From the NCBI GenBank assembly GCA_964490395.1, contig CAZBAS010000001.1, positions 83,815 through 147,814 on the forward strand: 64,000 nucleotides of DNA. The letters are read 5' to 3'. The translations under genes and the position numbers were made by a program. The notes beneath the pieces are model-generated. The model ran no database searches and had not been told where the DNA came from. It saw nothing but the letters and a program-made list of their open reading frames with translations. Shown here one piece after another: positions 2,133-63,466 of the stretch; the first letter of the stretch is position 1, and each line of letters begins with the position of its first letter. The stretch comes from an uncultured Candidatus Saccharibacteria bacterium (GTDB taxonomy: Bacteria > Patescibacteriota > Doudnabacteria > UBA920).

Positions 2133-3224
2133 TTATTTGAGCACCTGCTTGGCTAGCCTGTAAGCGCGGTAGGCTATCTTATTCCAAGAGATGTCTTGTG
2201 GCGGCGGGTAACTTGTTTGCTCCCCGCCAAAGCCAATTTTGAAGCGCGCAAAACCGGGTGTGGCACCAGAGCTGGTTTCGAGTCCGCCAAAATCGTACGA
2301 GTTTAGTCCCTGCTGCTTTGCGTCGCGAATAGCGTGCCAGTGCAGTGCATAGGGTGCCATTATGTTTTTTTGTGCGTCATTAGAACCGCCGTATAGGTAT
2401 GTCCGAGTGCCGCCAAAGTCAACAAATATTCCGCCAGACAATAGCGTGTCTTGGTAGAACGCAGCATACCATCGAACTTTTACATTTGCAGTACTAGTGT
2501 TCGAAACTTCGTTTACGTTGTCTTTTCTTTGTAAGCCTGTAGCAAAGAATGAGCAGAAGTTTTTATAATACGAAAACGAATGACCTTTATATGCTTGCCG
2601 TTCAGTCGTTTTGGTTATAAGCGATAATATTTCTTCTGCCTCAGGGCCTGCTAGATCGGTACCTGTTTTTACAATAACCCCGTGCTTGTTTGCTACTTTA
2701 ATGTTGTAGCGTGTCTTTTGGTGCATTTCCATTTGCAGCTGTTCCTCGGTTTTGCTGAGGTCCAGGAGTAGGGTGGAACCAGGTTGGATGCGCGAACTAG
2801 GCTGCCCGCCCCAGGCGGGTCCGCCTTGGGTGGATAGTTCAAGAGATGCGGTTAGTTCGAATTTTAGGAACAACGCTCTCGGGTAATCTTTTTTTATTTG
2901 CTCCACTAATTTTTGTATTGCATTTTGGAAATTGCCCGCCCCAGGCGGGTCCGCCTTGGGCGGAGAAATTGGAAATTGGAAATTAATCACGGGCCCATAC
3001 GGGCAATACAAGTAAAATTGTCCTAGTGGTAGGGGATACAATAAAAACTGTGCGGCAATTTGTGTTGTGCCTGCTTCGTCTGCAACTAAATACCTTTTTG
3101 CTTTCCTACCGTTCTTTTCCTGCCACTCGCCCCATTCAAAACTTTGCAAAAAAGAACCGTTGTTGTTTGCAACAAAGGCATTGTATTCTTCTCTGTCTTT
3201 TTCGGTTATTTCTTGAATGTGCAT
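2133..3224 (-). CDS. FemAB-family peptidoglycan interpeptide-bridge aminoacyltransferase (FemX-like)
   Basis: 363 aa with N- and C-terminal FemAB signatures (..SFEWGEWQ.. and ..YLYGGSNDAQKNIMAPYALHWHAIRDAKQQGL..YDFGG). It carries an internal 28-nt direct repeat. Confidence 0.7.
   Translation of the reverse strand: MHIQEITEKDREEYNAFVANNNGSFLQSFEWGEWQEKNGRKAKRYLVADEAGTTQIAAQFLLYPLPLGQFYLYCPYGPVINFQFPISPPKADPPGAGNFQNAIQKLVEQIKKDYPRALFLKFELTASLELSTQGGPAWGGQPSSRIQPGSTLLLDLSKTEEQLQMEMHQKTRYNIKVANKHGVIVKTGTDLAGPEAEEILSLITKTTERQAYKGHSFSYYKNFCSFFATGLQRKDNVNEVSNTSTANVKVRWYAAFYQDTLLSGGIFVDFGGTRTYLYGGSNDAQKNIMAPYALHWHAIRDAKQQGLNSYDFGGLETSSGATPGFARFKIGFGGEQTSYPPPQDISWNKIAYRAYRLAKQVLK
2803..2830. repeat. 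28-nt direct repeat copy 1 (tgcccgccccaggcgggtccgccttggg) inside the FemAB CDS
   Basis: Exact copy of 2933..2960. It contains the internal palindrome cccgcc-cca-ggcggg. Confidence 0.85.
2933..2960. repeat. 28-nt direct repeat copy 2 inside the FemAB CDS
   Basis: Exact copy of 2803..2830, 130 nt away. Because 130 is not a multiple of 3, the two copies are read in different frames (PKADPPGAG versus QGGPAWGGQ). Confidence 0.85.
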
Positions 3225-3351
3225 GATATAACAAAAATTCGAAATCCTAATATCGAAATCCGAAGTAAATTTGAAATTCCAAATTCTAATTTCTAAATCT
3301 CAAATTTAGAAATTAGATATTATTTCGGGTTTCAAAATTCGTGCTTCGGGT

Positions 3352-26244: not shown

Positions 26245-26386
26245 GATAGTTGGGGCGAATGGTAGGGCTATACTACCTCTTCAATTTCATCGCCGTGTTG
26301 ATATTAAATCGGTCCTTAAACAGTTTGCTAAAAAAGCAAAAAGAGCCTTGGACCAGCTCTTTTTTCTTAGCGATTATATACAAACA

Positions 26387-26430
26387 ATGTGCTACATTTA
26401 GACGGCCGTCTAAATGTAGCACATATTTTA
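26387..26430. terminator. Perfect 19-bp palindrome (atgtgctacatttagacgg/ccgtctaaatgtagcacat), a bidirectional terminator
   Basis: It lies between the convergent small plus-strand ORF and tsaD and is followed by an A/T-rich tract. Confidence 0.65.
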
Positions 26431-28851: not shown

Positions 28852-28888
28852 ATAAAAAAACTCCCGCTACGCGCGGGAGTTTTTTTAT
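28852..28888. terminator. Bidirectional terminator (ctcccgc-tacg-cgcgggag, flanked by A- and T-runs)
   Basis: Stem-loop with an A-run upstream and a T-run downstream, between convergent genes. Confidence 0.75.
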
Positions 28889-30656: not shown

Positions 30657-30690
30657 GGTCGGTCTCCTCATATTGGGGAGGGGGTATAAT
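30657..30690. repeat. GGGGAGG-type element in the 5' UTR of the PspC-domain gene (ggtcggtctcctc-atatt-ggggaggggg)
   Basis: It shares ggtcggtct and the CTCC..GGGGAGG palindrome with the other copies. Confidence 0.5.
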
Positions 30691-30731: not shown

Positions 30732-31070
30732 CTATTGCGCTATAAGCGTATTAATAGACTTACTAAATTCTTGCCAGGTAGCTTTAAGTGTCTTCAGCGC
30801 AGCTTTGCCTTCTTGGGTGAGCTCGTAATACTTGCGCGGCGGACCAGTTTTAGATTCTTCCCATGAGTAGGAAAGGAGGCCTGCGGTCTTAAGGCGAGAA
30901 AGTAGGGGGTAGAGTGTTCCCTCTACTACGAGTAGATTTGCTTCCTTAAGCTCTTTTAGTATGTCGCTGGCGTAAATGGGTCCTTTGGCTATAACCAGCA
31001 ACGTACAAAACTCCAGTATGCCCTTGCGCATTTGCGCTTTGGCGTTGTCTATATCAAATGCATTATCCAT
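30732..31070 (-). CDS. PadR-family transcriptional regulator
   Basis: Winged HTH (GPIYASDILKEL..GTLYPLLSRLKTAGLLSYSWEESKTGPPRKYYELT). Confidence 0.8.
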   Translation of the reverse strand: MDNAFDIDNAKAQMRKGILEFCTLLVIAKGPIYASDILKELKEANLLVVEGTLYPLLSRLKTAGLLSYSWEESKTGPPRKYYELTQEGKAALKTLKATWQEFSKSINTLIAQ

Positions 31071-31088
31071 AATGTGTCTTCTCTTTTT

Positions 31089-31120
31089 CCTCCCCTGATA
31101 TAGGGAGGGTGGGAGGGGTG
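31089..31120. repeat. GGGGAGG-type element in the 5' UTR of the PadR gene (cctcccc-tgatata-gggagg-gtg-ggagggg)
   Basis: Same architecture as the other copies. Confidence 0.55.
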
Positions 31121-31246
31121 TTATTTGTGGTTGTTCTAAATAATCCGGTTGTATAAATATAGTATATACTATAGTACCTTTTTATGCAAGGTACTATATA
31201 AATCTCTTTAGCATACATTATGAAGAGTCATAGATTAATGTATAAA

Positions 31247-31798: not shown

Positions 31799-32470
31799 AT
31801 GCCAAAACCCATCATTAAGAATTTAGATCGCATAGAGCAGCCAAGAGAGAAGTTGCTTAAGTATGGAGTAGAGAAGCTCGGCGAGACTGAGCTGCTAGCC
31901 ATTTTATTACGTACAGGTACGGAGGGCAAAAACGTCCTGGTGCTTGCTCGCGAACTTCTAAAAAAGTTTCCGGGCACTTCCCTTGCCAACGCGTCCATTG
32001 AAAGTCTACGAAAGGTAAAAGGGGTGGGCGAAGTAAAGGCGCTAGAAATAGTGGCGTGTTTGGAGCTCGGAAGGAGATTACTCAAAGACAAACAGTCCGA
32101 GCTGGTTTTGTCACCCCGAGCCGTGGCCGAACAAATGAGCACTGAGCGCATAAGTAAAAAAGAACACTTTGTTGTGTTCTTTTTAGATACTCAAAACCAA
32201 ATCGTACGGAAAGAGCTTGTTTCCATTGGCACCCTTAACGCTAGCCTTATTCATCCACGCGAAGTGTTCGAGCCTGCAATTAAATTCTTAGCGTCGCATA
32301 TTATAGTGGCGCATAATCATCCATCGGGTAGCCTTGAGCCAAGCGAAGAAGATTTAGCAGTAACCAAGCGGCTGGGGGATGCAGGCAAGCTCCTCGGCAT
32401 TCAACTGCTGGATCACGTTATAGTTACCACCATCGGCTACATTAGTTTAAAAGAACAAAATTTGCTCTAG
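31799..32470 (+). CDS. RadC-like JAB-domain protein (UPF0758)
   Basis: N-terminal HhH (LSDTELLAILLRTG-like: LGETELLAILLRTGTEG) and the JAB motif HIIVAHNHPSGSLEPSEED. Confidence 0.85.
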   Translation: MPKPIIKNLDRIEQPREKLLKYGVEKLGETELLAILLRTGTEGKNVLVLARELLKKFPGTSLANASIESLRKVKGVGEVKALEIVACLELGRRLLKDKQSELVLSPRAVAEQMSTERISKKEHFVVFFLDTQNQIVRKELVSIGTLNASLIHPREVFEPAIKFLASHIIVAHNHPSGSLEPSEEDLAVTKRLGDAGKLLGIQLLDHVIVTTIGYISLKEQNLL

Positions 32471-33904: not shown

Positions 33905-35986
33905 ATGACAGATACAAACGAACCAAAAAAATACTCTGTAGAAGAAATACGCAAAACGCACCCGCGCATGGGCATGCGCTGGGACAAAGAAGAGGATGAG
34001 CGGCTTCAGGCAGCGTACAGAGAGTTCCTATCGGAGCAAGGACGTAGCTTCGATCCATTCTTAGACCAGCTGGTAAAAGATTTCGGCCGTGCTGCGGGCG
34101 GTCTTAAGGCACGCCTTGCTATGCATTTCGATGATGTGCCCGGCTGGGATTATGAACAGGACAAGTACCGCGCTGAAGGTTTAGAAAAAGAAGTGGAGGG
34201 CTTATTTAGTCCGGAAAAAGATGCGCTGCTAAAAAGTGAGTATGAAAAGTACGTGTCCACCAAAGCAGAAACGTACTTAGCTTTTGTAAAGCGCATGAAC
34301 GAAGCACTGGGCGGTATAGAGAATAAATATATTCGTCACCGTTTGGAAAAGCTTGTGGGGGCCATAGAAATGTACAAGCGTTCTGACCTGGCTCCTCAAA
34401 AAGCAAAGCGGGCGAGTAACTTGGAAGAACCGCTGGAGAACATAGATTTTTCCGGTAATCCAGAATCGGAAGAAGCGCTGCGCATAATGGATGAAACTAA
34501 CGAAAACCTTTTTCTTACTGGAGAGGCGGGAACGGGTAAGTCCACCCTCCTGCAGTATTTTAGAAGTATTACCAAAAAGAATGTAGTAGTGCTGGCGCCA
34601 ACCGGTGTAGCTGCGCTGAATGTAGGTGGCCAGACCATTCATTCATTTTGCGGTTTTGGGCCGGACATTACGTTGCCAAAAGTAAAGCGCCTCGGGTCGT
34701 GGGCACCAAAGAAAAAGCTTTTGCAAAAGGTGCATACCATAGTCATAGACGAAATATCTATGGTGCGTGCAGACTTGCTCGACTGTGTAGATAAATTCCT
34801 ACGGCTAAACGGCCCAGCAGGGCATATTTCGTTTGGCGGCATTCAAGTGGTGTTTATAGGTGACTTGTTTCAACTTCCTCCCGTGGAGAAAGATTTTGTA
34901 ATGCGCCGCGAATCCGCGCAGGCCGCGGGTTTATTTGACGGTGTAGATGAAGACCCGGATTCAGCTCCTACGCATGCCTCGGCGCATACATACGCTAGCC
35001 CGTACTTTTTTGATTCGCAGGTGTTTCGTACTACCAATTTTCGTCATGTAAGCCTTAAGCACATGTATCGCCAGCACGATCCTGTATTTATAGATGTGCT
35101 CAATGCAGTGCGCAACAATCGCGTCTCGCAGAACCACTTAACTGTGCTGAATAGCCGTGCGCAGTCCCAAGGTACAAAGTTTACGTTTGAACAGTTTGCT
35201 ATATACCTTACCCCCACAAATGCTCGAGCGCGCCAGGTAAACAATTTCTTTTTGGAAAAGATTCCTTCGCCACTTAAAACATACAAGGGTTCTGCTCGCG
35301 GCACGTTTGAAAATAAAGAACTGCCTACCGACCTGGACTTGCAAATAAAAATTGGCAGCCAGGTTATGATGCTAAACAACGACCAGCGCAAGCGTTGGGT
35401 AAACGGCACCATGGGTAAAATAGTTGGCATTGAAAAAGCGGGTGGGTCATCTCCCTTTAAGGCGGGGGCTTCCCCGTCCTTCCCTCCCCAAGCTCTGGGG
35501 AGGGGTAGGGGAGAGGTCGGTCTGACAATGCCCGAGCGGCCGCGAAGTATAGAACAAATAACGGACCCCGATCCATTTTCCTATGAATACATAGACGAAG
35601 AAGTACCGCCAGTTTTTTCCGCAACAGACACCATAGTAATAGAACTGGAAACCGGCGACACCGTATACGTGCAACCTCACACCTGGGAAATGTTTAAGTT
35701 TGTGTTGGACGGTGCAACCCAAAGTTTAGACAGCGAAGTCACTGGGTCGTTTACCCAATATCCATTTAAACTGGCGTGGGCAGTTACCATTCACAAAGCG
35801 CAAGGCAAAACATTTAATAAAGTCTATGTAGACTTAGCCACTGGTACGTTTGCGCATGGGCAGTTGTATGTAGCCCTGTCCCGGTGCCGTACCTTAGAAG
35901 GGCTATACTTAAAAGACCCCATTATGCAGAAGGATATTATTTTGGACAATCGGGTAGTAGAATTTATGAAAAGATTAACAGTATAA
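33905..35986 (+). CDS. Pif1/RecD-family SF1B DNA helicase with an N-terminal extension (Myb/SANT-like W..EEDERL) and a repeat-element insertion
   Basis: FLTGEAGTGKSTLLQYF, APTGVAALNV, IVIDEISMV and VFIGDLFQLPPV motifs. About 55 extra aa relative to the paralogue at 38063 include a GGGGAGG palindromic element (35445..35527). Confidence 0.85.
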   Translation: MTDTNEPKKYSVEEIRKTHPRMGMRWDKEEDERLQAAYREFLSEQGRSFDPFLDQLVKDFGRAAGGLKARLAMHFDDVPGWDYEQDKYRAEGLEKEVEGLFSPEKDALLKSEYEKYVSTKAETYLAFVKRMNEALGGIENKYIRHRLEKLVGAIEMYKRSDLAPQKAKRASNLEEPLENIDFSGNPESEEALRIMDETNENLFLTGEAGTGKSTLLQYFRSITKKNVVVLAPTGVAALNVGGQTIHSFCGFGPDITLPKVKRLGSWAPKKKLLQKVHTIVIDEISMVRADLLDCVDKFLRLNGPAGHISFGGIQVVFIGDLFQLPPVEKDFVMRRESAQAAGLFDGVDEDPDSAPTHASAHTYASPYFFDSQVFRTTNFRHVSLKHMYRQHDPVFIDVLNAVRNNRVSQNHLTVLNSRAQSQGTKFTFEQFAIYLTPTNARARQVNNFFLEKIPSPLKTYKGSARGTFENKELPTDLDLQIKIGSQVMMLNNDQRKRWVNGTMGKIVGIEKAGGSSPFKAGASPSFPPQALGRGRGEVGLTMPERPRSIEQITDPDPFSYEYIDEEVPPVFSATDTIVIELETGDTVYVQPHTWEMFKFVLDGATQSLDSEVTGSFTQYPFKLAWAVTIHKAQGKTFNKVYVDLATGTFAHGQLYVALSRCRTLEGLYLKDPIMQKDIILDNRVVEFMKRLTV
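35445..35527. repeat. GGGGAGG-type palindromic element (ccctcccc-aagctct-ggggaggg..gagaggtcggt) inserted in-frame in the Pif1 CDS
   Basis: It shares CTCCCC-N6-7-GGGGAG-N6-7-GAGAGGTCGGT with the intergenic copy at 62709..62765. It encodes SFPPQALGRGRGEVGL, which is absent from the paralogous helicase. Confidence 0.7.
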
Positions 35987-38062: not shown

Positions 38063-39565
38063 ATGATAATTCTGTTGTTTGCTTTAGCTCTCGTAGTTTT
38101 TGCTCTATTGGTTAGAGAGTTTAAAAAGGGTAAAAAAGTAGCTCGTAGTTCAGGCGGCGACCAGTCGCGTGAGCCAGTGGTGCAGCGTTCCACGCTTGCA
38201 AAGTTCGGCTTGGGTTTTCGCAGGAAAACGCAGCGCGTATTGGTCTTGGAAAAACCAAAGTTAGATCTTACACCAGAAAGCCGGTATGCTCTGCACTTAC
38301 TCGAAAACACCAGACAAGGTGTATTCCTTACGGGGAAAGCTGGTACAGGAAAATCTACGCTTCTTAAGTATTTTCGCGCGACTACAAAAAAGAATGTTGC
38401 AGTAGTAGCGCCCACTGGCGTTGCAGCTATAAATGTGCAAGGTCAGACCATCCATCGCTTTTTCAAGTTTAAACCGGACATCACCGTGGAGACGGTAAAG
38501 CAGTATGTGCCCCGAGAACAGGCGCAGCTCTACAAAAAGCTGGATGTATTGGTCATAGATGAAATATCCATGGTTCGCCCAGACTGGATAGACTGCATAA
38601 ACGCCTTTCTGCAGTTGCATGGACCGCGCCCGGGTCAGTTGTTTGGTGGTGTGCAATTAGTATTCATTGGCGACCTGTATCAGCTGCCACCGGTAGTAAA
38701 GCGTGAAGAAGAACATATTTTTCAAAGCTTTTACAACAGTGAATTTTTCTTTTCTGCCAAGTCGCTCCAAAGCTATCAGTTTGCGCCCATTGAACTTACC
38801 AAAGTCTATCGTCAGTCAGACGCAGAGTTTATAGAAGCGCTGAATGCAGTTCGCGAAGGCGAGGTGGAACACCGGCACCTAGACCTCCTTAACAGCAGGG
38901 TAGATGAAACAGTAACTACAGAAGACAGTGGCGAAGCGCTGCGCATTTGGCTTATGCCTAAAAAAACACAGGTGGCAGAAGTAAACAGTAAGCACATGGA
39001 AGCACTTCCGGGTAAGGGTCGCGTGTACGTAGGCGAAGTGGAAGGTGGTTTTGGCGTAGATGAAATGCCTACCTCGTTTGAACTTCACCTCAAAGAAGGG
39101 GCGCAGGTTATGCTGCTGAACAACGATCCGGGTGGTAAGTGGGTAAACGGCGACGTAGCTAAAGTAGTAGGACTTGGTAGAAACGGTGTGCGTGTGTTGT
39201 TTGAGGACGGGAGCTACGACGACATTGGCCTGCATACCTGGGATGCGTTTCGCCATACGCTAGATGCTACTACGGGAAAAATAGTTGCAGTGAGCGATGG
39301 CTCCTACACGCAGCTTCCGCTCAAGCCTGCCTGGGCGCTGACCATCCATAAGTCCCAAGGGAAAACGTACGACAAAGTAGTGATAGATTTTAGCGAAGGG
39401 GTGCACCATTCTGGGCAGGCCTATGTTGCGCTGTCTCGGTGTAGAAGCCTAGAAGGACTTACGCTTACCGCACCCATACGACGGAGTCATATATTTATTC
39501 ACCCCTTAGTAAAGCAGTTCATGACGCTTGCGTCACAGCGGTCAGAGCAGCTGGTACCAAAATAG
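38063..39565 (+). CDS. Pif1/RecD-family SF1B DNA helicase (paralogue of 33905..35986)
   Basis: VFLTGKAGTGKSTLLKYF, APTGVAAINV, LVIDEISMV and VFIGDLYQLPPV motifs, plus an N-terminal TM segment. Confidence 0.85.
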   Translation: MIILLFALALVVFALLVREFKKGKKVARSSGGDQSREPVVQRSTLAKFGLGFRRKTQRVLVLEKPKLDLTPESRYALHLLENTRQGVFLTGKAGTGKSTLLKYFRATTKKNVAVVAPTGVAAINVQGQTIHRFFKFKPDITVETVKQYVPREQAQLYKKLDVLVIDEISMVRPDWIDCINAFLQLHGPRPGQLFGGVQLVFIGDLYQLPPVVKREEEHIFQSFYNSEFFFSAKSLQSYQFAPIELTKVYRQSDAEFIEALNAVREGEVEHRHLDLLNSRVDETVTTEDSGEALRIWLMPKKTQVAEVNSKHMEALPGKGRVYVGEVEGGFGVDEMPTSFELHLKEGAQVMLLNNDPGGKWVNGDVAKVVGLGRNGVRVLFEDGSYDDIGLHTWDAFRHTLDATTGKIVAVSDGSYTQLPLKPAWALTIHKSQGKTYDKVVIDFSEGVHHSGQAYVALSRCRSLEGLTLTAPIRRSHIFIHPLVKQFMTLASQRSEQLVPK

Positions 39566-39766: not shown

Positions 39767-40035
39767 TACCGTCATAAAAAAAGAGTATAGTAAAAGAGTA
39801 CAGCATACACATTTTGAAACTTCCACCTCCTGTCATTTCCGCCGTCGCTAAAGCTATGGCGGACAAGGCCGGAAATTACGATGCTTTGAGACCGTGTCCG
39901 ACGAAGCCTTGGCGAAGTTGGAGGGAAGGCCGGAATCCAGTATTCCCAAGACGGATAGCGTTCGAGGACTCGCAGTTTTCGGGGTGACAAGATAGGGGGT
40001 ATGGTAGAGGTATTAGAAACAAAGGAGAAAATTTT

Positions 40036-44192: not shown

Positions 44193-44255
44193 TTCGCCAC
44201 AATATGGAAAATGGGGTAAAATTTATCTTATACTCTAGGTTTGTTGAGTAATTTT

Positions 44256-47200
44256 ATGGCGATATCAAAAATAGATACATCAGAATTGCGGAAAATAATC
44301 ACAGGGCGCGTAGTGCCTCATATTTATTCTTTTCTCACGAATACACTTCCAAACTACCTCAAGGTTGGAGACACCTATCGTCCGATTGAAGAACGCCTCA
44401 ATGAATGGCGCAGGTTTTATAAAGATCTAGAAGAGGTTTCTCGCCACCGTGCAATTATTAATGACGAAGTATTTTTTCGAGACTACGCTGTCCACAAATA
44501 TCTGCAGCAAAAAGGCATTTCGCAAATACCACGCAATGTTTCTAAAAATGTGTACTCGAATGAGTTTTTTGAGGGCGCCAAAAAATCTGATGTATCTAAA
44601 GCGATAGAGGATATTGTAAACAATTACCGAAAAGCCGACATTTATGAGTATTATAGTTATGACGATGCTAAAAGTTTGGTTGAGTACCACCATCCACGTA
44701 CGCTAGAGTTTGCGCCGCGCCAAAATCAACAAGAGGTTATAGACAATTTTGGTATCGCAGTAAAGAAGGGGCGTACCAATCTCCTTATGTACGCGGTTAT
44801 GCGCTTCGGAAAATCCATTACCTCTATGTGGAGCGCAAAAACCATAAATTCAAAATTTACGGTAGTCGTATCAGCTAAAGCAGATGTTCATTCGGAATGG
44901 AAGCACACAATCGAAAGTCATAAGGATTTCACCGGCTACCGTTTTTTGGATAAAAATGATCTAAAAAAAGGGATGAGATTGTCAGCTCTCTATGGCCAGA
45001 AATTTAAGACCGGAAGTGGCGACGAAGAAATTTGTACAAATATCGTTCTTTTTCTTACCTTACAAGATCTGGCAGGATCAACAGACGCTATCAAGGACCA
45101 TCACAGGATATTGCAGAGCATAAAGATAAATCTACTCATTATAGACGAAACGCATTTTGGTGCGCGAGCCCCAGTTCTCGGTAAAATTTTGGCTGGAGTA
45201 GAGGTTGATGAAGAGGATAAGAAATTACTCAAGAATGATAATGAGGATTCAGAAAATCTTGGTGCGCTGAATAAGCTGGGGCCGATTAATGCCGAAGTTA
45301 ATTTGCACCTTTCTGGCACGCCATACCGCATTTTGATGGGCAGTGAATTTGAGCAGGAAGATATAATTGCATTTGTACAATTTAGCGACATTTACGAAGC
45401 AAAGTTGCAGTGGAAAAGGAAGCATTTAGACGAAGACGAATGGGATAATCCATACTATGGTTTCCCACAGATGATTCGCTTTGCCTTTAATCCTAACGAA
45501 AGCTCCCGAAAAAAACTTGTCGATATTGCGGGTGGTAAGCCCGCTGAGTTATTTGAACCAGTTAGTAAAAAAAAGAGCGGAGATTACGAAATATTCCAGC
45601 ACGAGCAGGAGATTGTCGATCTCTTGGAGGTGCTGGATGGCTCAAAAAACGACACTAACATGCTTGGCTTGTTAGATAATGAATCGGTTAAAGCTGGAAA
45701 GCTTGCGCAGCATATAGTTATTGTTTTGCCCTATTGCGCTTCATGCGATTCGCTTGAGAAGCTTGTACTTAAGAATAAAAAACTGTTTAGGAATATTTCC
45801 GAATATGAAATTTTTAACATCAGTGGTTTCAATAAGGTCCTTGCTACGCCTGAGCAGATAAAATCCGCAATTGCCAAAGCAGAAGCAGCAGGTAAAAAAA
45901 CTATTACCCTCACGGTTAATAAGATGCTTACCGGCGCTACTGTGCCCCAGTGGGATACAATGATTTACCTCAAGGGTACTGCAAGTCCGCAAGAATATGA
46001 CCAAGCGATATTCCGTCTCCAGTCACCATGGGTAAAAAGGTACGAGGGCGAAAACGGTAACGTCATCAAATACGATATGAAGCCGCAAACGCTTTTAGTA
46101 GATCTCGACCCGACGAGGTTATTTCATCTGCAGGAGCTGAAGGCTTTTACCTACGGTGCGAATACTGAAAACTTCGGTAATGAAAGGATAGAAGAATTTA
46201 TTAAGCGGGAACTGGCCATTTCGCCCATTATTACGTTAAACGCCGAAGGTAACAAGCTTGTAGAAGTAACCGCAACGAATGTTATTGACGAAGCCCGTAA
46301 GTATTCCAATAGCCGTACCATCACAGAAGACGTACAAGAAATTGGCGTTGATGTGTCTCTAAAAGATAATCCGGCAATTTTTGAAGTTATTAGTAAGCTG
46401 GCAGAGCTGGGTAGTAAGAATGGGCTAAACATAAGGCCGAACGTAGAAGAAGGTGGTGAATGGGACGGCGTAGCCTCGCAGGGTGATGTTGGGGAATTTG
46501 ATGATGCAATAGCTCGCCCTGGTAAAGACAGTTCCGGGGTTACCGAAGACATTTCCTCCTTTGAAAGACGTTTCCGGACATACTATGTAATGATTCTGCT
46601 ATTTGCATTTCTTTCAAATACCAAAGAAAAGTCTTTGGCTGATGTTATACAACATATTGACGCCGATGAAAATAATCGTCGTATTGCTCGCAACCTTGGT
46701 TTGAAAAAGTCTGACCTTGAGGTGTTTCGAAATAACCTCAACCCTTTTATCCGCTCAGAGCTCGATTATAAAATTCAGAATGCAGATTTTCGTTCAAGCG
46801 ACGACAGTATCACACCGGTTCAGCATTTAGATATTGCAATTCATAAGTTTGGTCGGCTGTCTGAAGCGGAAGTGTTTACCCCCTCTCGTATTGTTAGTAA
46901 GATGTACGACGCATTTGATGTAAAGTTCTGGCGTGGTGCTAAAGGAGTGAAAGTTCTTGATATTGCCAGTAAGTCAGGGGTTTTTGCTAAAGGTTTTGTG
47001 GAAAATGCCCTTAAACACGGATTAAAAATAGAGGAGATTAAAAATAACTTTTACTCTATTCCAACTTCACCCGCAGCGTATGAATTTACTCGTAAAATGT
47101 ACCAGGCGCTTGGTCTAAACCTGGATAATATTGCCAGACACTTTAATTCATTTGATCTTATTGCGCGGAGTGAGGAGGATGTGCGACTTCTGCTCTCGCA

Positions 47201-48263
47201 AAACAAAAAGTTTAGCGACATACGCCTTAGTGACCTCGAAAAACCTGCTAAAATGAAAGATATGAGCAATAGTAGTATGAAATTTGCAGCCGTTGTAGGA
47301 AATCCGCCGTATCAGATAAATACTGATACTAATTTTGCAAAGCCTGTTTACAATCAGTTTTTTGAATTTGCAAAAGCACTTGGTCCTAGTTATGTCGCTC
47401 TAATAATGCCAGCGCGTTTTCTGAGTAATGCAGGGGCTACCCCAAAAGAATGGAATAAAAAGATGCTTAATGATCCGCATATTTCTATTCCGATTCACGA
47501 GTTAGAGTCCGAGAAGGTTTTTACAGGTGTAGACATAAAAGGCGGTATTGTCGTAGTGTTTTGGGACAAGAGTAATCCAAGTGGTGGTTTAGGGGGGCGA
47601 TATATCCGGTCGGAAGAGTTGAAGCTGGTATTGGCAAAAACCAAAACTGGTGGATTCGACGCTGTCGTAGGGCCAAGGGGGGAAACAAAACTAAAGATCG
47701 TTCTAGATGAAAAATACCCTAATGATTTACGTATTGCACCGAATTATTTCGAAAGGTTCCCCAATGTATTTAAAAAAATACAAGATTCCAAACACCAAAT
47801 AAAGATAATAGGTTTAGAAAAAGGGAATAAGAGAACCTCGCGATATATTAGCCAGGATATAGTTAACGACCCTAAGCTCAAAAAGTGGAAAGTATTTTTG
47901 CCAGAATCAAATGGAAGTGGCGCAATCGGTGAGGTGTTGAGTACGCCCCTTGTAGGGGAACCCCTTGTAGGGTGTACGTATACTTTCTTGCAAGTTGGCT
48001 CGTTTAATAGTCGGCTAGAAGCCGAAAGTTGCATGAAGTATATTAAAACCAAGTTCTGTCGCGCTCTGCTCGGTACTATCAAGATTACCCAGCACAATAC
48101 GAGAGACGTGTGGAAGAATGTACCTGTTCAAGATTTTACCAAAAAATCGGATATCGACTGGACGAAATCTATTACTGATATAGATAAACAGCTTTATAAA
48201 AAGTACGGCCTTGATAAGCATGAGATAGATTTTATTGAAGCTAATGTCAAAGCCATGAACTAG
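44256..48263 (+). CDS. Single-polypeptide restriction-modification-like enzyme: N-terminal GIY-YIG-like module, Type III-Res-like SF2 helicase, and gamma-class (Eco57I-like) N6-adenine DNA methyltransferase with a C-terminal specificity region
   Basis: Residues about 25-80 resemble GIY-YIG (HIYSFLTNTLPNYLKVGDTYRPIEERLNEWRRFYKDLEE; compare I-TevI ..FEKRWKRHFKDLEKG). Helicase motifs are FAPRQNQQE, Walker A MRFGKSITS, IIDETH, SGTPYR and QAIFRLQSP. MTase motif X (EVFTPSRIVSKM), motif I (VLDIASKSGVFAKGF) and motif IV (GNPPYQ at 47301..47312) follow. A TTG at 44241 is an alternative start. Confidence 0.85.
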   Translation: MAISKIDTSELRKIITGRVVPHIYSFLTNTLPNYLKVGDTYRPIEERLNEWRRFYKDLEEVSRHRAIINDEVFFRDYAVHKYLQQKGISQIPRNVSKNVYSNEFFEGAKKSDVSKAIEDIVNNYRKADIYEYYSYDDAKSLVEYHHPRTLEFAPRQNQQEVIDNFGIAVKKGRTNLLMYAVMRFGKSITSMWSAKTINSKFTVVVSAKADVHSEWKHTIESHKDFTGYRFLDKNDLKKGMRLSALYGQKFKTGSGDEEICTNIVLFLTLQDLAGSTDAIKDHHRILQSIKINLLIIDETHFGARAPVLGKILAGVEVDEEDKKLLKNDNEDSENLGALNKLGPINAEVNLHLSGTPYRILMGSEFEQEDIIAFVQFSDIYEAKLQWKRKHLDEDEWDNPYYGFPQMIRFAFNPNESSRKKLVDIAGGKPAELFEPVSKKKSGDYEIFQHEQEIVDLLEVLDGSKNDTNMLGLLDNESVKAGKLAQHIVIVLPYCASCDSLEKLVLKNKKLFRNISEYEIFNISGFNKVLATPEQIKSAIAKAEAAGKKTITLTVNKMLTGATVPQWDTMIYLKGTASPQEYDQAIFRLQSPWVKRYEGENGNVIKYDMKPQTLLVDLDPTRLFHLQELKAFTYGANTENFGNERIEEFIKRELAISPIITLNAEGNKLVEVTATNVIDEARKYSNSRTITEDVQEIGVDVSLKDNPAIFEVISKLAELGSKNGLNIRPNVEEGGEWDGVASQGDVGEFDDAIARPGKDSSGVTEDISSFERRFRTYYVMILLFAFLSNTKEKSLADVIQHIDADENNRRIARNLGLKKSDLEVFRNNLNPFIRSELDYKIQNADFRSSDDSITPVQHLDIAIHKFGRLSEAEVFTPSRIVSKMYDAFDVKFWRGAKGVKVLDIASKSGVFAKGFVENALKHGLKIEEIKNNFYSIPTSPAAYEFTRKMYQALGLNLDNIARHFNSFDLIARSEEDVRLLLSQNKKFSDIRLSDLEKPAKMKDMSNSSMKFAAVVGNPPYQINTDTNFAKPVYNQFFEFAKALGPSYVALIMPARFLSNAGATPKEWNKKMLNDPHISIPIHELESEKVFTGVDIKGGIVVVFWDKSNPSGGLGGRYIRSEELKLVLAKTKTGGFDAVVGPRGETKLKIVLDEKYPNDLRIAPNYFERFPNVFKKIQDSKHQIKIIGLEKGNKRTSRYISQDIVNDPKLKKWKVFLPESNGSGAIGEVLSTPLVGEPLVGCTYTFLQVGSFNSRLEAESCMKYIKTKFCRALLGTIKITQHNTRDVWKNVPVQDFTKKSDIDWTKSITDIDKQLYKKYGLDKHEIDFIEANVKAMN

Positions 48264-49828: not shown

Positions 49829-50377
49829 ATGTTCTCACACTTATTTGGGTTTTGGGGCTGGGTTATTTTGGTAGTTGTGGTGGGGCTGGCGATTGTAGGT
49901 TTCTTTCTCGATGCCGCAAGGGAAGGTGTGGTGGGCCGTAGGGAGTCAGGTTATAAACGTAAAAAGTATCTGTTTGATGCAAATAGCGAGTTTGAGCTGT
50001 ATAAGATGTTGGTACGATTGTACGCGAATCAGTATCGTATTTTTGCTCAGGTGAACTATAGTCATCTTTTGGAGTCGAAGGATCGGGGCTTTGTTGCTTC
50101 CAGGGCTGGGCGAAGTCGTATAGATAGAAAATCTGCAGACTTTGTTTTGTGCGAGTTTGAATCAGCTGCGCCGTTGTTAGTCATAGAACTTGATGGCAGT
50201 GTTCATGGTACCGCGAAAAAGCATGAGCGAGATGTGTTTATAGACACGGTGTGTGCGGAGGCAGGGCTGCCCATCTTGCACTTAGAGGTGGGTAGCTTTG
50301 ATGAATTCCAACTTAAAACCCTAATACAACAAAAACTACCCGCACAACCAAACTCTAACCCTTATTCGCGCGAATAA
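49829..50377 (+). CDS. DUF2726 (NERD/restriction-endonuclease-like) domain protein with an N-terminal TM anchor
   Basis: IDRKSADFVLCEFES..PLLVIELDGSVH..RD.FID is the DUF2726 signature. Its 3' end lies within the palindrome cccTTATTCGCGCGAATAAggg. Confidence 0.55.
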   Translation: MFSHLFGFWGWVILVVVVGLAIVGFFLDAAREGVVGRRESGYKRKKYLFDANSEFELYKMLVRLYANQYRIFAQVNYSHLLESKDRGFVASRAGRSRIDRKSADFVLCEFESAAPLLVIELDGSVHGTAKKHERDVFIDTVCAEAGLPILHLEVGSFDEFQLKTLIQQKLPAQPNSNPYSRE

Positions 50378-50381
50378 GGGG
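50359..50381. repeat. Palindromic element cccTTATTCGCGCGAATAAggg (copy 1)
   Basis: Perfect palindrome. It is also found at 51007..51040 and, partially, at 13916..13935. Confidence 0.8.
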
Positions 50382-50457
50382 TAGGGATGGTGGTGTGATG
50401 GTAATTGTTTTGTGCGCAGGGCGGGTCTGGCGTTAGTTGCGGAATTTAAATACGTAT

Positions 50458-51006: not shown

Positions 51007-51040
51007 CTCTACCCCTTATTCGCGCGAATAAGGGGTAGAG
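51007..51040. repeat. Palindromic element ctctaccccTTATTCGCGCGAATAAggggtagag (copy 2, extended)
   Basis: Perfect 34-nt palindrome. Confidence 0.8.
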
Positions 51041-51062
51041 TGAGAATGGGTGTAGAATGTAG

Positions 51063-58944: not shown

Positions 58945-58990
58945 AAACTCTCCTCAAAATACCACGTTTTCTGCGGCCGCAGAAAACGTG
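58945..58990. terminator. Perfect 19-bp palindrome (aaataccacgttttctgcgg/ccgcagaaaacgtggtattt) nested within an outer tatccacc/ggtggata pairing
   Basis: Direct observation. A bidirectional terminator-like structure in a 250-nt intergenic gap. Confidence 0.55.
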
Positions 58991-59147
58991 GTATTTTGAT
59001 TTACAGGGTGGATAACTCTCTTGCGCATCTTCATGAAGCTGCTAGAATGCGCATAAAGACAAGCACATGATATTTACTTTCTTAAAAACTACCCACTCAT
59101 ACAAATAGCTAAAACAACAACGCTCTTTTGAGCGTCATTTATTAAAC

Positions 59148-62177: not shown

Positions 62178-62238
62178 TCTCACATTCTTCCTCCTTCGCC
62201 AAGGCTACGTCGGATAAGTAAGAATGTGAGCATGTTTT
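62178..62238 (+). terminator. Terminator (11-bp stem tctcacattctt/aagaatgtgag with a long loop, then a T-run)
   Basis: Stem-loop plus catgtttta. Confidence 0.45.
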
Positions 62239-62309: not shown

Positions 62310-62708
62310 ATGAACGGATATATAACAAATATAGAACAAGATTCTATACAAAACTCAGATTTTCGCCGGGTGGTTTACACTGCAAAACATTTACAGCTTG
62401 TACTCATGAGCCTTTTGCCAGGGGAGGAAATAGGTGAGGAAGTGCACGACTTAGACCAGTTTTTGCGCATAGATGCAGGCTCTGGCAAGGCAGTGCTGGA
62501 TGGTGTTGAACACGACATAAGCGATGGCTTTGCTGTATTAGTACCGCAGGGGACTAGGCATAACATTATAAACACCGGTAGCGAGCCCATGAAGCTTTAT
62601 ACCCTCTACGGACCACCAGACCACAAAGACGGTGAAGTGCAGCCGACCAAAGCAGACGCTATAGAAAACGAACATCCATTTGATGGCGTAACCACAGAGC
62701 AGGAATAG
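62310..62708 (+). CDS. Cupin-domain protein
   Basis: Cupin motifs G..E.H.H.....FL..G and VPQGTRHNIINTG. Confidence 0.65.
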   Translation: MNGYITNIEQDSIQNSDFRRVVYTAKHLQLVLMSLLPGEEIGEEVHDLDQFLRIDAGSGKAVLDGVEHDISDGFAVLVPQGTRHNIINTGSEPMKLYTLYGPPDHKDGEVQPTKADAIENEHPFDGVTTEQE

Positions 62709-62765
62709 TCTTTCCGGTTCTCTCCCCGGGCCTGGGGAGAGTTAGAGAGAGGTCGGTTGGGCCGT
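62709..62765. repeat. GGGGAGG-type palindromic element (tctcccc-gggcct-ggggaga..gagaggtcggt), intergenic copy
   Basis: Same family as 35445..35527. Confidence 0.7.
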
Positions 62766-62805
62766 ATCCTTAATTCATAATTCTTAATTCGTTATTCATC
62801 ATCTT

Positions 62806-63350
62806 ATGACCGAAACAGCAGTATTGGCCGGCGGGTGCTTTTGGTGCCTCGAGGCGGTGTTCCAGCAAGTTGCTGGTGTAGAAAAAGTTACGTCCGGATA
62901 TGCGGTGGTGGTACCGGCGAGGTGCCTACCTATGAGCAAGTGGGAAGAGGTCGCACAAAGCATGCGGAAGTAGTGCAAGTAGAATTTGATCCTACTATAC
63001 TTAGCTACCAAAGCGTCCTGGATATCTTTTTCACTATTCACGACCCTACCACATTAAACAGACAAGGGAACGATGTGGGAGAGCAGTATAGATCCGCAAT
63101 ATTCTATACTAGCGAAGAGCAAAAGGTGCAGGCTCAAGCAACTATTGAGTCGCTTACAACGCAGAAAGAATATTCCGAGCCCATAGTAACTCAGGTGCAG
63201 CCGCTGGATAAGTTTTACACTGCTGAAGAGTACCACCAGAATTACTATCAAGAAAACCAGCAACAGCCCTATTGTCAGTTGGTTATATCTCCCAAGATAA
63301 AAAAGTTCCATGAGAAGTTTGGAAGTATTTTGAAGGTGGAGTATCAGTAG
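62806..63350 (+). pseudogene. msrA: Peptide methionine sulfoxide reductase MsrA with a -1 frameshift in a G-run near 62903 (or a sequencing error)
   Basis: Frame 1 reads [33 protein letters not shown].. The other frame reads ..[54 protein letters not shown]. The sequence tatgcggtggtgg appears to lack one G of tatgcgggtggtgg. Confidence 0.7.
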
Positions 63351-63357
63351 GGTATTT

Positions 63358-63452
63358 TCCCTCCCCTAAGATAGGGGGGCAGGAGGGGTATGAAATAGTA
63401 AGCGCAATAGTCCGTACCCCCACTAGCTCCCCCTATGTTAGGGGGAGAATAA
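63358..63452. repeat. Two adjacent GGGGAGG-type palindromic elements (ccctcccc-taagata-gggggg..; ctccccc-tatgtta-gggggag)
   Basis: Same CTCCCC-N7-GGGGAG architecture as the other copies. They lie between msrA and the DUF296 gene. Confidence 0.6.
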
Positions 63453-63466
63453 GGCGCAGATGTCCT

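Follow-up and report, generated by a model that had tools for sequence, protein, structure and literature searches.

Short GC-rich two-tier palindromes in a Patescibacteria genome: a probable REP/RPE-like family with one copy in-frame in a Pif1-like helicase

Background

A stretch of 64,000 nucleotides from a Patescibacteria genome, hereafter called the window, whose proteins have Candidatus Doudnabacteria as their closest named relatives, carries in the gene of a Pif1-like helicase a GC-rich palindrome that is read in-frame, and palindromes of similar make-up are found in several of its spacers. The locus raises the question of whether these sequences belong together and, if so, which kind of element could be found both between genes and inside a reading frame. 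The observation itself holds at five sites, whereas a sixth is doubtful. We think that these sequences probably form a non-autonomous family of short GC-rich two-tier palindromes, similar to the repetitive extragenic palindromic sequences (REPs) and to the Rickettsia palindromic elements (RPEs), one copy of which lies in-frame in a loop of the helicase. By analogy, this appears to be a known kind of repeated DNA in a further lineage.

The window has a G+C content of about 45% and accommodates about 51 open reading frames (ORFs) with 90 codons or more, 36 of them on the + strand. Its GC skew is positive over its entire length, which makes the + strand the probable leading strand all along. Syntenic contigs of related Ca. 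Doudnabacteria genomes (designated by L and a number) served as comparison set.

Five hairpins in the window

An original prediction, made from the letters of this stretch, had described at least six copies of an element with a simple architecture, CTCCCC followed by a loop and by GGGGAGG, and the sequences re-read at its six coordinates match that description. A strict version of the motif, CTCCCC-N5-8-GGGGAG, has two matches in the window (35484-35502 and 62722-62739) and none in 100 dinucleotide-preserving shuffles; having matched two sites, it was rejected as too narrow a definition of the family. A looser scan asked for a 5' arm of 7 nt made only of pyrimidines, at least five of them C, with no more than one mismatch and with 3-9 nt in the loop. 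It picks out five loci (31088, 35482, 62720, 63361 and 63427), compared with 0.28 loci on average, and never more than 2, in the shuffled sequences. Under the same scan there are no mirror-type hairpins (purine arm first) in the window, and the three CCTCCCC words of the + strand all lie within the scanned hairpins. The 11-mer GAGAGGTCGGT is located 3' of both strict-motif copies, the one in the helicase and the one called copy B below, and occurs nowhere else in the window. Five hairpins where 0.28 would be expected thus bear out a repeated family of short imperfect palindromes, GC-rich and with paired stems, as is typical of REPs (20-40 bp). The count of at least six holds for five good copies, the sixth being doubtful. 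The copies and their parts, together with the helicase gene that hosts one of them, are as follows.

33905..35986, + strand: host gene, a PIF1-family helicase of 693 aa (Pfam PIF1 and Pif1_2B_dom)
35445..35524, + strand: helicase compound element, two hairpins plus an outer stem, from sequence and fold
35451-35455 and 35464-35468, + strand: helicase hairpin 1, CTCCC and GGGGG
35482-35489 and 35497-35505, + strand: helicase hairpin 2, CCCTCCCC, loop aagctct, GGGGAGGGG
35508-35521, + strand: helicase second purine block, GGGGAGAGGTCGGT; the element has the in-frame reading ..SSPFKAGASPSFPPQALGRGRGEVG..
62709..62768, + strand: copy B, intergenic, directly 3' of the stop codon TAG of a cupin gene, with outer TCTTTC
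62720-62727 and 62734-62741, + strand: stem of copy B, CTCTCCCC, loop gggcct, GGGGAGAG, then GAGAGGTCGGT at 62747-62757
31071..31130, + strand: padR-leader copy, an insertion of about 60 nt, 2 nt upstream of the start codon of padR, which is on the - strand
31089-31094 and 31103-31108, + strand: stem of the padR-leader copy, CCTCCC, loop, GGGAGG, then the second purine block GGGAGGGGT at 31111-31119
63351..63398, + strand: msrA composite, hairpin I, directly 3' of the msrA stop codon TAG
63359-63366 and 63374-63379, + strand: stem of hairpin I, CCCTCCCC, loop taagata, GGGGGG, then the second purine block GGAGGGGT at 63382-63389
63416..63455, + strand: msrA composite, hairpin II, CTCCCCC 63427-63433, loop tatgtta, GGGGGAG 63441-63447, without second purine block
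30657..30690, + strand: doubtful copy in the padR-pspC spacer, GGTCGGTCT CCTC atatt GGGGAGGGGG

The unit is made of a pyrimidine arm (CCCTCCCC), a loop of 6-7 nt and a purine arm (GGGGAGGG). Four copies have a second purine block, or echo (GGGGAGAGGTCGG or a variant of it), 1-5 nt past the purine arm: GGGGAGAGGTCGGT in the helicase, GAGAGGTCGGT in copy B, GGGAGGGGT at padR and GGAGGGGT in the 3' copy at msrA. In the predicted folds the echo pairs with a pyrimidine tract located 5' of the inner hairpin, giving a GC-rich imperfect palindrome of about 45-80 nt in two tiers. The architecture first proposed therefore describes the hairpins correctly and the elements only in part, since these are two-tier palindromes or two-hairpin compounds and not simple stem-loops. 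The stretch 63351-63455 is such a compound, a composite of about 105 nt with two similar hairpins in direct orientation. Stems vary by paired changes (CCCTCCCC/GGGGAGGG versus CTCTCCCC/GGGGAGAG, and CCCCTCC/GGAGGGG in L010), and the copies have in common the echo block, the GAGAGGTCGGT tail and the related loops taagata, tgatata and taatata. In 12 of 14 members of the family the purine-rich strand gives a more stable fold than its complement, by means of G-U pairs. With three G4 runs plus GG, and so without four tracts of three or more G, this strand does not qualify as a canonical G-quadruplex.

The doubtful copy has a weak stem (-5.2 kcal/mol), fails the hairpin scan and shares with the helicase copy the 9-mer GGTCGGTCT. 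The spacer around it is hypervariable among relatives, and at best it may be a remnant, a degenerate or partial copy. As for the intergenic placement, the elements lie between co-directional neighbours or in the padR leader; none is located between convergent genes, contrary to part of the original prediction.

The copy inside the helicase

The helicase ORF is intact and all PIF1 motifs are present. The element is inserted between the strand ending in ..NGTMGKIVGI and the segment ..IVIELETG, and it adds about 26 residues to a loop of about 58 residues (about 514-572, nt ~35444-35620). The segment is missing from the paralogue encoded at 38063-39565 and from the closest solved homologue, 8bns_A, in which residues 516-573 of the query fall between residues 312 and 313. 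In an AlphaFold model the confidence score (pLDDT) is about 30, and below 50, over residues 514-572, flanked by the confident strands 503-510 and 576-581; the loop, which forms the tip of the 2B domain (SH3-like), is therefore predicted to be disordered.

Among 116 orthologues the length of this loop ranges from 12 to 117 aa, and its sequence is not conserved. The same helicase, identical, is present in an independent assembly from another run (L001), and the same element is kept in an orthologue that is 88% identical (P0002, from L002). Two other orthologues, 87% and 84% identical (P0003 and P0004), have unrelated sequence in the loop, in P0005 the element is replaced by a 9-nt-periodic repeat, and it is absent from the helicase loops of L004, L007 and L010. 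At least three more distant orthologues contain insertions of their own: an in-frame GC hairpin in L150 (CCTCCCTCTCCCtttGGGAGAGGGGtcGGGGGTGAGGG, read as PPSPFGRGVGGEG), another in L151 (CCCTCCCCCttgaGGGGGGAGGctagGTGGGGGTGGG, read as PSPLRGEARWGW) and an in-frame cluster of four GC hairpins in L152, all of them independent, and the loops of many further orthologues hold peptides typical of other translated repeats. Because this place has received independent insertions in orthologues, of related as well as of unrelated repeats, the loop looks like a permissive landing pad and not like a functional module. The proposed in-frame insertion is thus confirmed, the element being tolerated with the reading frame and helicase motifs intact around it, and comparison with orthologues reveals a segment that is not conserved at the protein level.

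The comparison between the window and L002 also bears on the level at which the element is maintained. Nucleotide identity is 93% over the hairpin core (35459-35518), 57-73% over the remainder of the loop and 78% over the whole gene, and the two substitutions in the core are both at unpaired positions. For this reason we infer that the hairpin is kept at the nucleotide level, either by a constraint on DNA or RNA structure or by homogenisation between copies, and not by selection on the peptide.

It is hardly credible that the family is a chance or compositional artefact, or that it results from mis-assembly at a repeat. The strict motif has indeed two matches only, and one of the listed copies is weak; however, chance is contradicted by the shuffle controls and mis-assembly by the identical helicase in an independent assembly, by the retention of the element in a diverged orthologue and by the intact reading frame.

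Two further observations concern helicase loops. The 9-nt-periodic repeat in the loop of L010 (8120-8220, gataagtcc-like) is read as DKSDKSDLSN.., and peptides of the SYKSY or LSYLSY type are found in the loops of other orthologues. The window helicase also has a second variable loop of low confidence (34895-35008, residues ~330-360, pLDDT below 50), which is 32-53% identical to that of L002 and which many orthologues lack.

Filled and empty sites in related genomes

If these palindromes are gained and lost as DNA, orthologous sites should be filled in some relatives and empty in others, and this is what is seen at the intergenic sites. The padR leader is filled in the window and in L010 by an orthologous insertion of 60-68 nt, 2 nt from the start codon (in L010 it reads CCTCCCCtaatataGGAGAGGctaGGTGAGGTC), and it is empty in L004, L007 and L008, where the sequence runs uninterrupted from CCATAG into GTYTCAT..TATATACTATAGTACC. 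The cupin-msrA spacer, which holds copy B in the window, is in L019 and L021 an AT-rich spacer of 43 nt without the element; in L011 and L017 it holds inserts unrelated to copy B. The msrA-PCC spacer is 116 nt long in the window, including the two-hairpin composite, versus 2 nt in L019. Both spacers are minimal in L019 and L021. The composite aligns to positions 1257-1370 of L010, with 78% identity over about 105 columns. In L010 it occupies a non-corresponding locus, between a further ORF and the pspC terminator, and at that place the window has the terminator only. That sites vary between filled and empty, and that one composite recurs at loci without homology, speaks for elements that are acquired and lost as DNA.

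The alternative is that the palindromes arose locally in hypervariable spacers and loops, through slippage, template switching or hairpin-primed repair, so that their likeness would be compositional, without transposition or common origin. All the sites are indeed hypervariable, with differing kinds of repeats in differing lineages; the search for a transposase (in 30 window ORFs), a target duplication or a tag was negative (see below), and some of the metagenome matches described below have tandem partial duplications of the purine block. Local processes would nevertheless have to produce the same two loops and spacer motifs in a composite of about 105 nt at non-homologous loci, place GAGAGGTCGGT and GGTCGGTCT in distant copies, avoid the mirror orientation, and yield one extended consensus in at least 120 metagenome contigs. 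We consider this hypothesis quite improbable.

Three observations on these neighbourhoods stand apart. A recombination tract around the padR-radC spacer is indicated by the discordant affinities of radC and its neighbours (given below); this spacer also holds about 600 nt that L004 and L007 lack. Upstream of padR, at 31150-31190 and at the orthologous sites of all relatives, is a conserved palindrome, TATACTATAGTACC-N-ATGCAA-GGTACTATA, which is probably the PadR operator or promoter; the padR-leader element is inserted between it and the padR start codon. Finally, msrA (62806-63350) is apparently frameshifted near 62900 in the window, with overlapping ORFs at 62806-62973 and 62835-63350, and is a single gene of 177-181 aa in relatives, so the window copy could be a pseudogene or reflect a sequencing error.

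A role at the RNA level

The hairpins might instead be primarily functional RNA, serving as 3'-end stabilisers, as processing barriers or, for padR, as a leader structure, and they may sequester a GGAGG box by means of an anti-Shine-Dalgarno-like CCUCC arm; the helicase copy would then be an accidental by-product. Three copies begin 0-1 nt past a stop codon between co-directional genes, as many REPs do, and both the better folding of the G-rich strand and the nucleotide-level conservation of the hairpin core are what this hypothesis would lead one to expect. The padR copy, however, is antisense to padR, the corresponding sites of relatives lack the elements, and Rfam covariance models give no match on the elements, neither at the gathering score nor with E values up to 10. 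The stems are not followed by a T-run, hence not by a U-tract, and a terminator scan, which calls canonical terminators nearby (for example at 28861), makes no call on them, so they were rejected as intrinsic terminators. The suggestion that the GGAGG core mimics a Shine-Dalgarno sequence likewise finds no support and was rejected, the purine blocks being 12-50 nt from start codons and paired within stable stems. We think that a primarily RNA-level function is unlikely as an explanation of the family as a whole; it is, in any case, compatible with the selfish-repeat interpretation, the two not being mutually exclusive.

Similar hairpins in other genomes

The architecture is not confined to the window. 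The pattern CCTCCCC-N6-7-GGRGRGG-N1-4-GGNGAGGT retrieves at least 120 stretches from a collection of species-representative genomes, several of the matches coming from single genomes. Those listed include Patescibacteria (Doudnabacteria, Peribacteria, Paceibacterota, Saccharibacteria), Prevotella, Rhizobiales, Cyanobacteria, Chloroflexota, Clostridia and Nitrospira. The listed matches of this collection display no conservation at positions outside the imposed pattern.

A second pattern, modelled on the subtype of the helicase copy and copy B (CTCCCC-N5-8-GGGGAG-N6-12-GAGAGGTCGG), was run on metagenome contigs. At least 120 of them share the extended consensus CCCCTCCCC-N4-GGGGAGGGG-N3-GGGGGAGAGGTCGG, beyond what the pattern imposed, sometimes with a CCCTTCCC/GGGAAGGG hairpin 5' of it; in some matches the purine block is partly duplicated in tandem. 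Of the listed matches with low G+C content, roughly one in three lies inside an ORF of at least 120 codons, and Pfam confirms as hosts, among others, NAD-dependent DNA ligase (LigA), alanyl-tRNA synthetase (AlaRS), MiaA, a release factor and a GAF-HD protein.

One might see in these matches and in the window copies an unnamed and widespread class of C-run/G-run two-tier hairpins, defined by this consensus and devoid of the GTAG or CGTC tags of REPs. Its range would extend from Patescibacteria to Bacteroidota, Cyanobacteria, Chloroflexota and Proteobacteria, and its members would repeatedly be found in-frame in surface loops of housekeeping proteins (Pif1-like helicase, LigA, release factor, AlaRS, MiaA). 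We put this forward tentatively and consider it doubtful. If true, whether through one evolutionary family or through a shared host-encoded factor that mobilises or recognises the hairpins, it would mean a new cross-phylum superfamily of mobile hairpins, and the 2B loop of the Doudnabacteria helicases would be a natural recorder of hairpin invasions. What we claim is an architecture that appears widespread across phyla, and not a proven common origin; homology across phyla is not claimed, as the positions that were not imposed are unconserved and viral contigs contain 5 mirror stretches versus 8 for the real pattern.

Hallmarks of mobility

How well does the family fit a mobile element? Our proposed explanation is that the copies are non-autonomous repeated DNA, present or absent at orthologous sites and with a composite at unrelated loci; that they would land immediately 3' of stop codons and in a leader region; and that inside genes they would survive where a surface loop tolerates added residues. 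Survival inside proteins would be possible because the elements are rich in G and C, hence poor in stop codons. They would spread as hairpin-forming single-stranded DNA, mobilised by a trans-acting enzyme encoded outside the window.

Several points weigh against this explanation and should be acknowledged. Where the edges are clear, at two sites (padR, filled versus empty, and cupin-msrA), target-site duplication is absent, the termini of the elements are not defined, and no distinct terminal inverted repeats were found beyond the hairpin itself. Pfam detects no transposase domain and no parent insertion sequence in 30 of the about 51 window ORFs, and the GTAG/CGTC tag is not conserved beside the stems of the window copies. 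A clean empty site is lacking for the helicase, the whole loop being replaced in relatives. All echo-bearing copies are on the + strand, a bias to be read with the small number (n=4) and with its confounding with gene orientation. The copy number is judged from 64 kb of the genome only. Since radC (31799-32470), beside the padR site, has its closest counterpart in L010 (83% amino acid identity) and L004/L007 hold the closest counterparts of padR, pspC and the two helicases, recombination could partly account for the pattern of presence and absence. Beyond the window, the match counts across phyla are lower bounds (at least 120), and the viral contigs give the figures of 8 and 5 already mentioned.

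Some more specific hallmarks were also looked for. Domains of RAYT (the Y1 transposase associated with tagged REPs), TnpA and TnpB were not found by Pfam among the same 30 ORFs, and GTAG, CTAC, CGTC and GACG are not enriched within 40 nt of 99 related metagenome copies; membership of the GTAG/CGTC-tagged REPs was accordingly rejected, the tag being absent. Among the about five copies in 64 kb there are no inverted dimers of the REPIN or BIME kind, head-to-head or tail-to-tail, the pair at 63351-63455 being in direct orientation. The left edges abut (A/G)TAG at the four intergenic insertions that can be placed (window 62706-62709, 63348-63351 and 31068-31071; L010 1253-1256), and in three cases the TAG is a stop codon; the sample is too small to call a target site, and the observation has the value of a lead only. 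The assignment as MITE/REP-like (MITE, miniature inverted-repeat transposable element) can therefore be retained for the repeated palindromes and for the tolerance of in-frame insertion. Target-site duplications, terminal inverted repeats, a parent insertion sequence or transposase, the tag and head-to-head dimers, which would complete it, were not found.

Comparison with known systems

In-frame palindromic insertions are a hallmark of RPEs (Ogata et al. 2000, summarised in PMC10969869 and PMC3733652). The window elements resemble them in being palindromic repeats found both in intergenic regions and in-frame in housekeeping genes, with the added peptide in tolerated, surface-exposed segments, and in that a transposase is known for neither. 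RPEs differ in being about 100-150 bp long, AT-richer, confined to Rickettsia and divided into defined families (RPE-1 to RPE-10), whereas the units described here are 45-80 nt long, are C-run/G-run hairpins and have a Patescibacteria host; with such a host, membership of these families or a relation in sequence is not expected.

Intragenic REPs are known in several species, many of them in replication and repair genes (UvrD/Rep helicases, RecBCD, DNA ligase; Di Nocera et al. 2013, PMC3733652). REPs are found within 20 bp of upstream stop codons, and the GTAG or CGTC tag defines large REP superfamilies (PMC3733652). Like them, the window elements are short GC-rich imperfect palindromes with G-T pairs in their stems, located mostly just 3' of ORFs between co-directional genes, sometimes abutting a TAG stop codon, and in some cases intragenic. 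Unlike them, they have no conserved GTAG/CGTC tag beside the stem and form no head-to-head or tail-to-tail dimers, their loops are longer (6-7 nt), they possess a second purine block, and no RAYT accompanies them in the 30 ORFs tested.

The palindrome-associated elements derived from IS200/IS605 (PATEs) and other MITEs are likewise small, non-autonomous, dependent on hairpins and without target duplication. The two same-orientation hairpins of the ~105-nt composite recall left and right subterminal hairpins, and all four placeable insertions abut TAG. On the other hand, no TnpA or TnpB is present in the ORFs tested, ends and target site are undefined (n=4, three of the TAGs being stop codons), and most of the window elements consist of a single hairpin. 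The small dispersed repeats of cyanobacteria, reportedly described by Elhai and co-workers in 2008 as very short, hairpin-forming, nesting and sometimes intragenic, are similar in these respects; they belong to another lineage and have other sequences.

No description of the present family came up in the literature, the coverage of which was incomplete, either with sequence strings or with combinations of candidate phyla radiation and palindromic or intragenic repeats; strings such as GGGGAGGGGT and GGGGAGAGGTC led only to eukaryotic primers and G-quadruplex papers.

Significance

Bacteria of the candidate phyla radiation are thought to have small, streamlined genomes. Despite this streamlining, the window contains several families of hairpin repeats that are quickly gained and lost and that reach into coding sequence. 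Such elements would account for strange peptides of low complexity (PSPxxGRGxGEV, SPPKADPP and the like) and for differences in length among proteins that are conserved in other respects, and segments inserted in this way should not be taken for functional domains. What we find most interesting is that one helicase loop has been colonised repeatedly and independently, and that this class of hairpins has possibly spread across phyla. With its many independent insertions, this loop may be a convenient system for studying how proteins tolerate selfish DNA, and also for asking how hairpins could move without an obvious transposase.

Other repeats in the window

A FemAB-family ORF (2133-3224, - strand) contains two copies of a separate palindromic repeat of 32 nt, TCCNCCCAAGGCGGACCCGCCTGGGGCGGGCA, at 2803-2834 and 2933-2964. 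Because the two copies are read in different frames, as ISPPKADPPGAG and LSTQGGPAWGGQ, they show directly that repeats are inserted into genes at the DNA level in this genome.

Several other repeats were noted in passing. A third family, TCCGACGAAGCCTTGGCGAAG..GGA, occurs in inverted orientation at the intergenic positions 39897-39922 and 62189-62214, and a related unit is located upstream of pspC in L010 (~3200-3270). Perfect and near-perfect palindromes without spacer, of 46 and 48 nt, are found at 58954-58999 and 26382-26429, respectively. Within the ORF 44241-48263 (1340 aa), tandem small hairpins at 47946-47975 (CCCCTTGTAGGGG-AA-CCCCTTGTAGGG) are read in-frame as PLVGEPLVG. Finally, a segment of about 620 nt beside DpnI-like and DUF2726 ORFs is enclosed by an inverted repeat of 33 nt (50352-50384 and 51009-51041), which is 97% complementary and is itself a palindrome around TTCGCGCGAA; the enclosed segment may be a small cassette, either mobile or related to restriction.

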